Shown: piece by piece, positions 17,222 through 21,551 of the stretch
Layout of the letters: each line of letters begins with the position of its first letter
How positions within the stretch are numbered: position 1 is the first letter of the stretch
From: a plasmid
Sequence record: NZ_CP028351.1
Length of the DNA: 64,000 bases
Strand: one strand, 5' to 3'
Program-made: the position numbers and the translations under genes
Notes under the pieces: generated by a model
Seen by the model: only the letters and a program-made list of their open reading frames with translations
Told to the model about the DNA's origin: nothing
The model's database searches: none

Positions 17222-18061
17222 ATGAAAATTCACCACCTTAACTGTGGTTGTATGTGCCCGCTGGGCGGCGCGTTCTATGATGGATTCAGTAAAGGCCTGA
17301 AAGCGCACCTGGTCTGTCACTGCCTGCTGATTGAGACAGATCGCGACGGGCTGGTGCTGGTCGATACTGGCTTTGGGCGGCAGGATATCCATACGCCCGG
17401 CAGTCGCCTCTCGGGCTTTTTCCGCGCCTTAAACAATATTCAGCGGCGTGACGATCTCACCGCCTTGTCACAGGTGAAGGCACTGGGCTTTCGGGCTGAC
17501 GATGTGCGGCATATTATTCTGACCCATCTTGATTTTGATCATGCTGGCGGACTGACCGATTTTCCGCAGGCGCGCATCCATCTGTTGCAGCAGGAGGTCG
17601 ATACTGCCCACCAGCGTCATAGCTGGCTGTCGCGCGAGCGCTATCGTCCCGGACAATGGGGCGGGATCGGCAACTGGGAAACCTATCAGCCGCAGGGGGA
17701 AACATGGTTTGGTTTTGAGGCGGTAAATCGCCTGCGGGATTTACCACCGGAGATTTTGCTGGTGCCGCTGGCGGGCCATACGCCGGGTCACGCGGGCATT
17801 GCGATTCAGCAACCCGATGGCTGGCTGCTGCACGGCGGCGACACCTGGTTTTACCGCGGCGAAATGCGACAGCCGACGCGCCACTGCACGCCGGGACTGC
17901 GCTTTTACCAGTGGATGATGGGCATGGATAATGTGGCCAGACGGCACAACCAGCAGCGACTCCGTGAACTCTCCTGCCAGCGCGGCGGCGAAATCACCTT
18001 TTTCTGCAGTCACGATGCGCGCGAACTGGATGCGTTGCAGATTAATGCGCCGCTGCGCTGA
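17222..18061 (+). CDS. MBL-fold metallo-hydrolase
   Basis: The metal-binding motif is THLDFDHAGG, with downstream His and Asp ligands (AGHTPGH, HGGD). Confidence 0.75.
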   Translation: MKIHHLNCGCMCPLGGAFYDGFSKGLKAHLVCHCLLIETDRDGLVLVDTGFGRQDIHTPGSRLSGFFRALNNIQRRDDLTALSQVKALGFRADDVRHIILTHLDFDHAGGLTDFPQARIHLLQQEVDTAHQRHSWLSRERYRPGQWGGIGNWETYQPQGETWFGFEAVNRLRDLPPEILLVPLAGHTPGHAGIAIQQPDGWLLHGGDTWFYRGEMRQPTRHCTPGLRFYQWMMGMDNVARRHNQQRLRELSCQRGGEITFFCSHDARELDALQINAPLR

Positions 18062-18109
18062 TGCGATAAACTCCGTAATGGTGATGGGGCAGTCACCTCA
18101 GGGCGAGGA

Positions 18110-18424
18110 CTATGCCGTCCCGTCACTCCCCTGGGACGTCACGAGCCCCGGATGCAGAGGCACGCCGGAAACGTCCGTATTTTCACGCGCTTTGTGCAGA
18201 TCGCATGCAGCCTGCATGGATAACCAGAGCCGCGCTGAAATACCCAGCCCCGCCTCCAGCCGAAGAGCCATTTCCGGGCTTACGGAGGCTTTTCCGCCTG
18301 ACACTTTGCTCAGCGATGCCGCCGAAACGCCCAGCTGTTTAGCCAGACTGCGCATACTGATGTCATTATCTTCCAGATATTCCGCTATCAGGCTGCCTGG
18401 GTGTGGCGGTTTAAACATTACCAT
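18110..18424 (-). CDS. higA: HigA antitoxin (Xre-type HTH)
   Basis: MVMFKPPHPGSLIAEYLEDNDISMRSLAKQLGVSAASLSKV... matches the plasmid Rts1 HigA pattern (FK..HPGE.IA..LED). The ORF track extends it 75 codons upstream in frame, but that extension has no homology support. Confidence 0.8.
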   Translation of the reverse strand: MVMFKPPHPGSLIAEYLEDNDISMRSLAKQLGVSAASLSKVSGGKASVSPEMALRLEAGLGISARLWLSMQAACDLHKARENTDVSGVPLHPGLVTSQGSDGTA

Positions 18425-18561
18425 CAATGATAATCCTCGCGGTTGAGAATGAATGCGTCGACGTCCGTGAATCCGAATGTGATGTGCCAGTTTGCTCTGA
18501 CCGGAACTGAATAGACGTTCTTTCTTTCCCCGTGCCTGGGTAAAAGCGAAAGCCCGGCTTT
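18424..18561 (-). pseudogene. higB: higB toxin remnant: about 45 C-terminal codons, no start codon, 5' half missing
   Basis: The frame ending TGA overlapping the higA ATG (TGATG) reads ...[39 protein letters not shown]. This resembles the HigB C-terminus (...GDREGYWSITVRANWRITFQFINGDAYILNYEDYH, recalled from memory). An in-frame TGA lies immediately upstream and there is no ATG, GTG or TTG. Confidence 0.6.
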
Positions 18562-18602
18562 TCATTGTACAATGGTTTGTTTTATTCACTGCGGAGGTCT
18601 TT

Positions 18603-18854
18603 ATGAAAGCCATCATTTTCGGCGAAGCCCGACGGAATCTTTCTGCCACGATGATTCAGACGGCAGAAGATAAAGCGCCAGTAATGATCATTCGCCGGAA
18701 CGGTGAGTCCTGCGTGCTGATGTCGACTGAAGAATATAACTCACTGGAAGAGACGGACTGGCTACTGCGATCGCCCAGGAATGCCCGCAGATTGATGGAT
18801 GCTATCGAAAGCCTGCGAAGCGGTGACGGGACTGACAGGAATGTGATTGCGTAA
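18603..18854 (+). CDS. yefM: Phd/YefM-family antitoxin
   Basis: The 83-aa product is near-colinear with E. coli YefM ([52 protein letters not shown]...I). Confidence 0.85.
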
Positions 18855-18856
18855 AA

Positions 18857-18940
18857 CTGTCCAGGTCCGCAGAAGCCCGGCGGGTCTTTGCCGTCAGTGG
18901 GGATGCTCTGTCAATCGCCTTATGCCGCTATCATTATTGA
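18857..18940 (+). pseudogene. yoeB: yoeB toxin remnant: last 27 codons only
   Basis: The frame starting at 18842 reads LSRSAEARRVFAVSGDALSIALCRYHY*, compared with the YoeB C-terminus SRRITEEHRLVYAVTDDSLLIAACRYHY (from memory). The N-terminal two-thirds of the toxin is absent, and this frame is closed by stops just upstream. Confidence 0.6.
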
Positions 18941-19013
18941 CGGGCTCAGGAGTTTACCCCTGAGCCCTTATCTTGCGCCTGTTTCAGCGGCGTCGTCATC
19001 CACCGCAATCCTG

Positions 19014-21551
19014 TTACGTCGGATCGCCCGCCCTCTTTTTAAGCTGTGCGGAAAGCCATGGCGCAGTCAGACTCTCTGCGGATGTGCTGACCGCTTCCGG
19101 CGTACCGGACGAGACAATCCTTCCGCCCTTCAGCCCCGAACCGGGCCCCAGATCAATCACCCAGTCCGCCTCTGCCACAATGCGCATTGTGTGTTCCGCC
19201 ATCACGACGGTGTGGCCGCGCGTTACCAGTTCATTCAGCACAATCAGCAGTTTGTCCATGTCGGATGGGTGCAACCCGGTTGACGGTTCATCAAGCAGAT
19301 AGAGCGTGGCTGTGCGCTGGACGCGTTGCAGCTCCCAGGCGAGCTTGATGCGCTGACACTCACCGCCAGAGAGCTCCGTGGCGGGCTGACCCAGCGTCAG
19401 GTATCCCAGCCCCAGAGATCGCAGTGCCGACAGGGAACGCTGGATCCCGTCGTACCCGTCAAACACCCTGGTGGCATCGTCTACGGTAAGATCAAGCACA
19501 TCCGCTATGGTCAGGTCGTTCCACTTCACCTCTAGCGTTTCGGGGTTGTAGCGGCTTCCCGCACAGACCGAGCAGGTTGCGGTGGCGCTGGGCATAAAGA
19601 GCAGCTCTATCGAAATCTGTCCCTGACCCTCGCACGCAGGACAGCGACCCGCGGGCAGATTGAAGGAAAACCGGCTGGCGCTGAAACCTCGGGCTTTCGC
19701 CTCGGGGGTCTCTGCAAACAGCCGGCGGACGATATCGAAAAAGCCGGTATAGGTGGCCAGATTGGAGCGTGGCGTCCGCCCGATAGGGCGCTGATCGATT
19801 CTGACCAGACGGCCAATGGCGTCATTTCCGCTGAGAACCTGACCTTTAACGTCCGGCACCAGGTCCTCTTCTTCACCCTCTTCACTGTCAGATGTTTTGT
19901 CAAAACGTCCGAGCATTTCCGGAAGAACGCGATTCAGCAGCGTCGATTTGCCTGAGCCGGAAACGCCGGTAACCGCCGTCATTCTCGCCAGTGGGATGGC
20001 GATATCCACGCCGATAATATTGTTGCAATGGACCTGCTCAAGCCTGAGCCAGCTCTCCGCGGGCTGGCGCTGGCGCAGCCCGGTATAGCTGCGGGAAAAG
20101 AGATAGCCTGATGTCGGTGAGGCACTGACGTCTTTAAGGCCTGCCGGTTCACCGTTATAAACGATCTCACCACCATGCGTTCCCGGACCGGGGCCGACCT
20201 CGATGAGCCAGTCAGCCTCGGCGATGAGGTCGAGGTTATGTTCGACGACCACCAGCGAGTTACCTGCACGCACAAGATTCCTGAGGGATGCGAGCAGCGC
20301 TTTGACATCCTCAGGATGCAGACCAGCTGAAGGCTCATCCAGCACGTAAAGCACGCCAAACAGCCGCGATATCAGCTGGGTAGCCAGACGTACGCGCTGC
20401 AACTCGCCGGAGGAGAGCAGCGTGGTGCGGCGTCCCGGTGCCAGATGCCCAAGTCCCAGCGTCTCAAGCTGTTCAAGCCGCATGCAGATATCTGACGCCA
20501 TCCGGATGACGGCTTCCCGCAGCGCCGCCTCGGCAGGCAGATCTGATGATGAACCGTCTGCATAAGGCCTCAGCCGTTCAGCAAGTTCAGAAACCGACAG
20601 CTCACTCAGACTGGCAATGTCATAACCGGCAAAGGTCACGGACAGTGCGTTCCGGTTTAACCTTTTGCCATGACACACTGAACAGGGCGTGACCGTGACA
20701 AAGCGCGCCAGCCGTTTTTTCGTCGTCTCGCTGCCACCGGAATAGCTCTGCAATACGATTTTAGCTGCGCTGGTGTAGGTGCCGGTATAAGCGGGCTCTT
20801 CGCCAGCCGCCAGGGCTTTTTCACGCTGTTCAGCGTTCAGACCCATAAAAATCGGCACTGATGGCTGCTCGTCAGTCAGCAGTATCCACTGCTGGTCGCG
20901 GGCTGAAAGCGTATCCCAGGGGGCATCGACATCGTAGCCGAGCGTCTCAAGGATGCTGCGCAGATTTTTGTTATGCCAGCCCCGCGGCCATGAAGCTATG
21001 GCGCCCTGCCGGATGCTCAGTGACCTGTCCGGCACCATCGCCTCGGTTCTGACGGTATGAACCCGTCCCAGCCCCTGGCAATGCGGACAGGCACCTTCAG
21101 GATTGTTAGGCGAGAAATAATCGGCGGTCATAAACGGCACACCGTCAGGCCTTGTGCCCGCACGGGAAAACAGCAGGCGCAGCGTGACGGAAATTCGGGT
21201 CAGGCTGCCTACCGTTGAACGCTCCTGCGCGCCAGCCCGGCTCTGCTGAAGCGCCACCGCAGGCGGGAGTCCGTCAATATTATCCACATCCGGCGCAGCG
21301 GCCTGATCGATCAGGCGACGGGCATGGGGTGAAACCGACTCGATAAACCGGCGCTGGGCTTCTGCATAAAGCGTATCAAAGGCGAGTGAGGATTTCCCGG
21401 AGCCTGAAACCCCCGTGAACACCACCATGGCATTACGGGGAAACCGCAGCGATACATCTTTGAGGTTATGTGTTCTTGCACCCTGTACCGAGACATAAGG
21501 ATCAATGTGCTCATCAGCGCGATAAGTATGGGCGTTATCTTGTTCTGTCAT
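19014..21551 (-). CDS. UvrA-like ABC ATPase (class II UvrA paralog, 845 aa)
   Basis: Two ABC cassettes are present, with Walker A motifs [10 protein letters not shown] and [10 protein letters not shown]. Zinc-finger Cys pairs are CPHCQG...CSVCHG and CPACEG...CSVCAG. The protein is about 100 aa shorter than canonical UvrA, which is consistent with the absence of the UvrB-binding domain. Confidence 0.85.

Follow-up and report, generated by a model that had tools for sequence, protein, structure and literature searches.

We have identified the remains of two adjacent toxin–antitoxin (TA) modules, higBA and yefM–yoeB, in a 64,000-nucleotide stretch of plasmid DNA (sequence record NZ_CP028351.1; this whole 64-kb stretch is called the window below). 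Both toxin genes are dead and both antitoxin genes, higA and yefM, are intact, and the pair has decayed through at least two deletions whose junctions are old and common to related Pantoea sequences. The account that we consider rather probable is that the toxins were lost by deletion and the antitoxins retained with continuing selection, anti-addiction (the neutralisation of related toxins from other plasmids) being the leading candidate for the benefit.

Two intact antitoxin genes and the remnants of their toxins

The antitoxin genes are complete and divergently arranged, with 178 bp between their starts, as the initial annotation had described. HigA scores 86.1 bits against TIGR02607 (cutoff 47.7), and its nearest solved structure is HigA of the Proteus vulgaris plasmid Rts1 (4MCX). 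YefM reaches 136.1 bits against the NF008499 equivalog (cutoff 121) and matches PF02604 with E = 2e-16; the nearest solved structure is YefM of Escherichia coli (2A6Q, E = 1e-32).

Only the last ~44 codons of higB are left, close to the 45 or so first proposed. The stop codon of this remnant overlaps the higA start (TGATG), the start codon is absent and an in-frame stop lies just upstream, all of which had been recognised before. The remnant shares 65% identity with residues 51–93 of the intact syntenic HigB (E = 5e-20), and it aligns with the same residues of another intact HigB at E = 3e-20. What had been overlooked is a further 1-nt deletion near 18540, visible against two intact higB genes, so that the first ~8 codons of the stub lie outside the ancestral frame. 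An intact toxin gene directly upstream of higA is absent; for comparison, an intact HigB scores 65.8 bits on PF05015.

The yoeB remnant differs from the ‘exactly last 27 codons’ originally reported. Alignment shows 29 codons, with codons 1–9 (18851–18877) joined in frame to codons 65–84 and the stop (18878–18940) across an internal deletion of 165 bp. Its C-terminal peptide, RRVFAVSGDALSIALCRYHY followed by the stop, is 71% identical to the YoeB C-terminus over 24 amino acids (E = 2e-10); on PF06769 the remnant attains 18 bits (cutoff 27), over positions 58–80 only, and it has no NCBIfam match. The description of both toxin genes as 5′-truncated consequently suits higB, which has also lost its promoter and putative operators, and has to be replaced for yoeB, where the middle was lost in frame. 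The yoeB start codon has changed from GTG to GTA, and the same G>A change converts the yefM stop from TGA to TAA. This change is secondary, because one metagenome contig (L011) has the yoeB deletion and keeps GTG/TGA.

It could be argued that an intact toxin persists in another frame or nearby, or that the remnants are chance similarities. A mechanically called open reading frame (ORF) of 179 aa (18110–18649, minus strand) does extend the higA frame upstream; it was rejected, as a 4-bp insertion breaks the extension in FDAARGOS_160 and there is no family match beyond HigA. A tblastn search with intact HigB and YoeB found only the two remnants in the 64-kb window in any frame, in perfectly syntenic positions and with the E-values of 5e-20 and 2e-10 given above. 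The check on mis-translated frames and the check on remnant similarity, both of which the initial annotation had named as possible refutations, thus came out in its favour, and we regard the mis-reading as refuted, with next to no probability left to it.

The host molecule is very probably pPV989-167 (CP028351) of Pantoea vagans PV989, a large ParAB-partitioned Pantoea plasmid of the pPag1 type. The window region is 97% identical to pPag1 of P. vagans C9-1 and matches many Pantoea plasmids of one replicon cluster, and its HigA is an exact match to AVV39905.1/WP_107320505.1 (P. vagans). PV989 is a clinical isolate that carries pPV989-167 (PMC5971314). ParA and ParB are present on pPag1, and no further TA module is annotated on that plasmid in the PLSDB gene table, which is incomplete.

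Deletion junctions

The endpoints were mapped against intact syntenic cassettes, namely P. agglomerans pCB1B for higBA and pVag2 for yefM–yoeB, with the second deletion compared with four intact yoeB genes. Both junctions could be placed, which bears out the earlier proposal that deletions had destroyed both toxins and spared both antitoxins.

Deletion 1 accounts for ~256 bp missing relative to pCB1B, i.e., higB codons 1–49 and most of the higB–yefM intergenic region. It took the hig promoter with two GTTTC-N7-GAAAC palindromes (putative operators), together with the stretch that precedes the yefM operator. The junction, at about 18557 (...GCGAAAGCCCGG/CTTTTCATTG..., the oblique stroke marking the joint), lies inside an interrupted palindrome, AAAGCC-C-GGCTTT, and coincides with its centre. 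In pCB1B the GTTTC-N7-GAAAC palindromes are located just upstream of the higB ribosome-binding site and, judging by this position, are probably the HigA operators. The same palindromes are still present on pVag2 and CQ10, both of which are without higBA; some ancestor therefore held both complete modules. In pVag2 (L003 2163–2321) and CQ10 (L007), compared with pCB1B (L002 2810–2962), the palindromes start directly after the stop codon of the flanking MBL-fold gene. The alignments suggest that the higB–higA coding block was excised near-precisely from the pVag2/CQ10 lineage, with the operator region left in place.

Deletion 2 removed 165 bp in frame, yoeB codons 10–64 (55 codons), between the imperfect direct repeats GCAGAAGCCTGG and GCAGAACATCGG. 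In pCB1B-type plasmids the 3′ part of yoeB was lost instead, which represents an independent event.

A 9-mer, AAGCCCGGC, occurs on both junctions of the window (18550–18558 and 18873–18881), in direct orientation and 323 bp apart, and its two copies bracket PyefM, yefM and yoeB codons 1–9. The chance of such a coincidence is about 1e-3 by a rough estimate, and the native sequences at the two left breakpoints were already alike. The shared 9-mer may reflect a sequence preference of slippage, or a single concerted template switch. No insertion sequence or transposon scars were seen at the junctions, nor were terminal inverted repeats. We also considered the 9-bp direct repeat as a target-site duplication; this is less parsimonious than two microhomology deletions, since yefM still adjoins its native operator on one side and yoeB codons 1–9 on the other.

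Age and spread of the double-orphan locus

A scan of metagenomes for junction 1 returned five contigs (L011–L015). Together with the plasmids of C9-1 and FDAARGOS_160 these give seven other sequences with junction 1, identical in all seven, and junction 2 is identical in all six that reach so far (contig L015 ends inside yefM). The backbones of the double-orphan sequences diverge from the window by up to 9%. Since both junctions are common to C9-1, FDAARGOS_160 and the metagenome contigs, the deletions are old. Not one of the sequences examined carries just one of deletions 1 and 2, and the exact junction-1 pattern had no match in GTDB representative genomes.

Compared with pPag1 of C9-1, the window is 100% identical over 18425–18887, which covers the higB stub, yefM and the beginning of the yoeB stub. 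It differs by 4.8% in higA and by about 3% (dS about 0.1) in the MBL and uvrA genes on either side, the flanks and higA together ranging from 3 to 5%. This mosaic identity implies recent homologous exchange of the TA segment.

The site exists in several states among the Pantoea plasmids of PLSDB. Intact yefM–yoeB without higBA is the most frequent (18 plasmids, e.g., P. vagans LMG 24199 pVag2, P. alfalfae CQ10, P. agglomerans TH81 and FBS135), followed by higA only (14, e.g., ZJU23) and by intact higB–higA with yefM and a 5′ yoeB stub (11, e.g., P. agglomerans pCB1B); two plasmids have yefM only (e.g., CFBP8756) and two are double orphans (C9-1 and FDAARGOS_160). No PLSDB Pantoea plasmid has both toxins intact at this site, and none has a toxin there without its own antitoxin. 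The series of states appears to fit the rule that antitoxins outlast toxins.

Two P. agglomerans plasmids (CFBP8756, L008 1–1837) have a gene with an S-type pyocin domain in place of CitMHS, the MBL gene and higA upstream of the orphan yefM, a further rearrangement with its endpoint at the yefM operator. In FDAARGOS_160 the strongly constrained MBL gene contains a genuine-looking 5-bp deletion and an early stop beside the 1-bp deletion in higA (aligned to window positions 17273 and 18325); either this plasmid could be decaying more widely, or the assembly could contain indel errors.

Residue 53 of YefM (18759–18761) is Trp in all alleles with a dead yoeB (window lineage, pCB1B type and CFBP8756 type) and Tyr in all toxin-linked YefM of Pantoea and E. 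coli. The common Trp53 suggests that the orphan yefM alleles form a single clade, in which yoeB would later have been lost twice, separately, through different deletions.

Selection on antitoxins and remnants

The ratio of non-synonymous to synonymous substitution rates (dN/dS) was derived from Nei–Gojobori counts, which are small. In the double-orphan lineages the toxin remnants behave as neutral sequence, with a dN/dS of about 1: the higB remnant gives mostly 1.2–3.6, and 0.5 in one comparison, values never distinguishable from 1, and the yoeB remnant gives 0.4–1.05. Orphan yefM ranges from 0.22 to 0.29, with P about 0.003 versus neutrality in each of three comparisons; the toxin-binding C-terminus (residues 56–83) stands at 0.26 and the DNA-binding N-terminus at 0.32. 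Orphan higA has 0.13–0.40 over the whole gene, 0.15 in the core (residues 1–81) and 1.2 in the tail (residues 82–104). The flanking MBL gene has 0.05–0.10 in comparisons with appreciable divergence, the flanking uvrA paralogue 0.03–0.16, and toxin-linked yefM, between species, 0.02–0.05.

Pooled over three lineages, the numbers of non-synonymous and synonymous differences (Nd:Sd) are 35:43 for the antitoxins versus 30:10 for the remnants (Fisher P = 0.002). No indel was found in yefM across the lineages versus seven in the other 579 bp of TA DNA, and each of the seven double-orphan sequences that span the whole yefM ORF has it intact. In the pCB1B lineage, where yefM was orphaned independently, its dN/dS is 0.09 (CB1 vs CFBP8756). 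Compared with toxin-linked yefM, the orphan gene has an Nd:Sd of 19:19 vs 1:16 (P = 0.002), pointing to selection that is relaxed roughly 5–10-fold and still present. With moderate confidence we infer that yefM at least, and higA until recently, has been kept under selection.

Promoters and operators of the orphan genes

YefM–YoeB operators consist of paired L and S palindromes, with TGTACA cores 12 bp apart, that overlap the −10 box. In E. coli the L repeat is TCATTGTACAATGA, the footprint lies over the −10 box and the ATG is at +21 (Kedzierska et al. 2007, PMC1802561). The window contains the L palindrome TCATTGTACAATGG at 18562–18575, which agrees with its E. coli counterpart at 13 of 14 positions, holds the −10 hexamer TACAAT (18568–18573) and is perfectly conserved across all lineages. 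The gene has also kept its leader, a Shine–Dalgarno sequence GGAGG at 18593–18597 and the downstream terminator hairpin. The deletion-1 junction lies at about −22, and the native −35 zone is therefore replaced by higB-derived DNA. A consensus sigma-70 scan returned no site in the window and likewise none at the intact pCB1B cassette; it is thus uninformative on expression, because nothing is found at intact cassettes either. From the retained L operator, −10 box, ribosome-binding site and terminator, yefM is probably still made as a self-repressing protein.

For higA, manual inspection of the minus strand over 18425–18600 revealed no −35 element, and such −10-like hexamers as occur are weak: TACAAT, within the palindromic L operator, and TATCAT, directly ahead of the ATG. 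The higBA module of Rts1 reportedly has a weak promoter of its own for higA (PhigA). In Acinetobacter baumannii higBA2 the predicted internal higA promoter is inactive (PMC5906591).

Live toxin relatives on other plasmids

The conjugative IncFII plasmid pPV989-94 (CP028352) of strain PV989, which very probably resides in the same strain as the window plasmid, carries an intact higBA directly after psiB–psiA. Identity is 91% between its HigB and the syntenic HigB of pCB1B, and 76% between its HigA and that of the window. On pPV989-94 (L010 3961–5805) the psiA stop and the higB start overlap, so that higBA seems to belong to the psiB–psiA leading-region operon, with early expression predicted after conjugative entry.

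Within the replicon cluster of the window plasmid, 18 siblings carry an intact yoeB; no YoeB turned up on other replicons of the same strain. Among the best 80 YoeB relatives in GTDB representatives there is no P. vagans locus, which is weak evidence for the absence of a close yoeB from the species representative and uninformative for PV989 itself.

Retention under selection or slow decay

We propose that the ~256-bp deletion removed the 5′ half of higB together with the hig promoter and operators, and that yoeB lost codons 10–64 to the 165-bp in-frame deletion flanked by short imperfect repeats; in later decay the yoeB start codon would have been lost and the higB stub frameshifted. Loss of a toxin, or of toxin and antitoxin, should be survivable and loss of the antitoxin alone lethal, so that decay would run through orphan-antitoxin states. 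Purifying selection would have acted on both antitoxin genes since the deletions; yefM at least is probably still beneficial, and higA, with no recognisable promoter, seems to be starting to break down in some lineages. The candidate benefit is the neutralisation of related YoeB and HigB of sibling, incompatible or conjugative Pantoea plasmids, i.e., anti-addiction and displacement immunity. Such a role of the orphan higA and yefM is plausible because PV989 also carries a conjugative plasmid with intact higBA. The dN/dS of the orphan genes, well under that of the adjacent remnants, and the live relatives of both toxins on Pantoea plasmids argue in the same direction. In its fullest form the proposal would make the orphans a plasmid-borne immunity pair, which would allow this pPag1-type lineage to coexist with, or displace, sibling plasmids of the same replicon with live yoeB or higB and would blunt the addiction imposed by conjugative higBA plasmids such as pPV989-94, both deletions perhaps stemming from one concerted template-switching event; as a whole, this extended version is speculative and unlikely.

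Several observations weigh against retention under selection for anti-addiction. The −35 zone of yefM was replaced through deletion 1, and the S-repeat position (18578–18583) reads TGTTTT, a degenerate 3/6 match; Pantoea plasmids whose toxin is live have a degenerate S repeat too (TGTATT or TGTAAT). C9-1 has the same orphans, and neither its pPag2 nor its pPag3 is among the listed close HigB or YoeB matches. With only ~75% identity to its toxin-linked counterpart and non-synonymous evolution 5–10 times faster, orphan YefM is of uncertain capacity for cross-neutralisation. A cluster at 90% identity comprises 30 distinct variants of the 83-aa YefM, several of them with radical changes. The higA promoter and both putative operators were lost, and higA itself is frameshifted in two of seven lineages, by an 11-bp deletion in L011 and by a 1-bp deletion in an A run in FDAARGOS_160, the latter possibly an assembly error. 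Finally, the locus is a mosaic, and antitoxin variation may have been imported from toxin-linked alleles, biasing dN/dS downward.

The main rival is slow neutral decay with recombination-biased dN/dS, in which the antitoxin genes would be functionless relics and their low dN/dS would stem from exchange with toxin-linked alleles, from small counts or from too short a time since the deletions. The damage to higA and its control region, the strong relaxation and variability of orphan YefM and the evident mosaic recombination all speak for it, as does the per-site divergence in the remnant (~9%), which is below the neighbouring dS of 0.2–0.3. Against it stands the higB remnant, which lies between the two antitoxin genes and has, in the same lineages, a dN/dS of about 1 or more where the antitoxins have 0.15–0.3, a significant contrast; this neutral stub between both genes argues against imported variation as the whole story. 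Nor would relics be expected to leave yefM intact and without indels in all seven sequences beside damaged neighbouring DNA, or to show constraint again in the independently orphaned pCB1B lineage. We therefore judge the relic explanation a serious possibility, though on balance not a likely one. That YefM and/or HigA have instead been co-opted as stand-alone repressors of other genes, and no longer bind toxins, is improbable. By family assignment both are DNA-binding proteins, the constraint in higA resides in its helix-turn-helix (HTH) core with a neutral C-terminal tail, and the L operator of yefM is conserved throughout. The toxin-binding residues 56–83 of YefM, however, are as constrained as its N-terminus, which is unexpected if DNA binding alone mattered; moreover, no target was identified beyond the protein’s own operator, and the GTTTC-N7-GAAAC palindromes beside higA were deleted. 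Retention of useful antitoxins after deletion of their toxins accordingly stays our preferred reading of the locus.

Layout of the locus and flanking genes

The features of the locus and its two syntenic anchors are listed in Table 1. A search of 17800–19300 against Rfam (E <= 1) matched no RNA family. The UvrA paralogue (19014–21551, minus strand) is shorter than canonical UvrA, adjoins the TA site in all Pantoea plasmids examined and, with its dN/dS of 0.03–0.16, is under strong purifying selection.

Table 1 Features of the orphan antitoxin locus and its flanks, in window coordinates
Feature	Position	Strand	Basis or remark
MBL-fold metallo-hydrolase gene	17222..18061	+	left flank, syntenic anchor
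higA, intact orphan antitoxin gene	18110..18424	-	104 aa, HTH_3 / TIGR02607 HigA
higB remnant, last ~44 codons	18425..18557	-	HigB alignment
Deletion-1 junction, about 18557 +/-1	18549..18561	.	alignment with P. agglomerans pCB1B
yefM operator and core promoter	18562..18583	+	alignment with E. coli yefM upstream DNA
yefM, intact orphan antitoxin gene	18603..18854	+	83 aa, NF008499
yoeB remnant, codons 1–9 + 65–84 + stop	18851..18940	+	intact yoeB alignment
Terminator-like G+C-rich hairpin, 3′ of yoeB remnant	18942..18967	+	kept in intact yefM–yoeB plasmids
Plasmid-borne UvrA paralogue gene, 845 aa	19014..21551	-	right flank, syntenic anchor

Significance and comparison with known systems

Orphan antitoxins and degraded TA loci are frequent, and anti-addiction was first proposed some 20 years ago. 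The locus described here is a new, unusually well documented case of a known kind of decay and is mechanistically ordinary. It is rarely possible to ask whether an orphan antitoxin is junk or useful; in this instance one syntenic locus on close plasmids, with at least five decay states and independent losses of each toxin, amounts to a natural experiment with built-in neutral controls, namely the toxin remnants that lie between the antitoxin genes. That these remnants evolve neutrally while the antitoxins are constrained suggests that an orphan antitoxin can retain its use long after toxin loss. With a live higBA carried by a conjugative plasmid in the same strain, trans-immunity can be put to a direct test. 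Annotation pipelines call such genes parts of an ‘addiction module’ though the plasmid has no working killer, which matters when plasmid stability in biocontrol or clinical strains of Pantoea is inferred from annotation.

The closest relative of the yefM side is the chromosomal yefM–yoeB of E. coli (2A6Q). Window YefM aligns with its E. coli counterpart end to end and reaches the equivalog cutoff; the L operator agrees at 13/14 positions and has the same TACAAT −10 box at a similar distance from the ATG, and in its ancestral form the yefM stop overlapped the yoeB start (GTGA) as in E. coli. Unlike the E. coli module, the window locus is plasmid-borne, its yoeB is reduced to codons 1–9 and 65–84 without a start codon, its S repeat is degenerate, its −35 zone is higB-derived, and its YefM evolves about 5–10 times faster than toxin-linked Pantoea YefM.

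On the other side, higBA of the Proteus vulgaris plasmid Rts1 (4MCX, 4MCT; PMC12266136) shares the toxin-first order and the HTH fold of HigA and provides the best PDB match. The intact Pantoea relatives have two inverted-repeat sites upstream of higB that resemble O1/O2 of Rts1, and a role as operators is likely for them as well. In contrast to Rts1, just the last ~44 codons survive of the window higB, deletion has taken the promoter along with both putative operators, and the GTTTC-N7-GAAAC palindromes of Pantoea are only putative HigA sites.

Orphan antitoxins have been surveyed in Klebsiella pneumoniae (PMC7192599), and reviewed cases of anti-addiction or orphan antitoxins include the chromosomal ccd of Erwinia chrysanthemi, acting against F-plasmid CcdB, and the Bartonella plasmid pVbh (PMC7354431). 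The window locus departs from these systems in having two adjacent orphans from unrelated families, located on a plasmid instead of a chromosome, with a putative neutralisation in trans and a higA that is devoid of a promoter and breaking down in some lineages. It resembles them in that other mobile elements of the genus, and probably of the very same strain, carry related live toxins.

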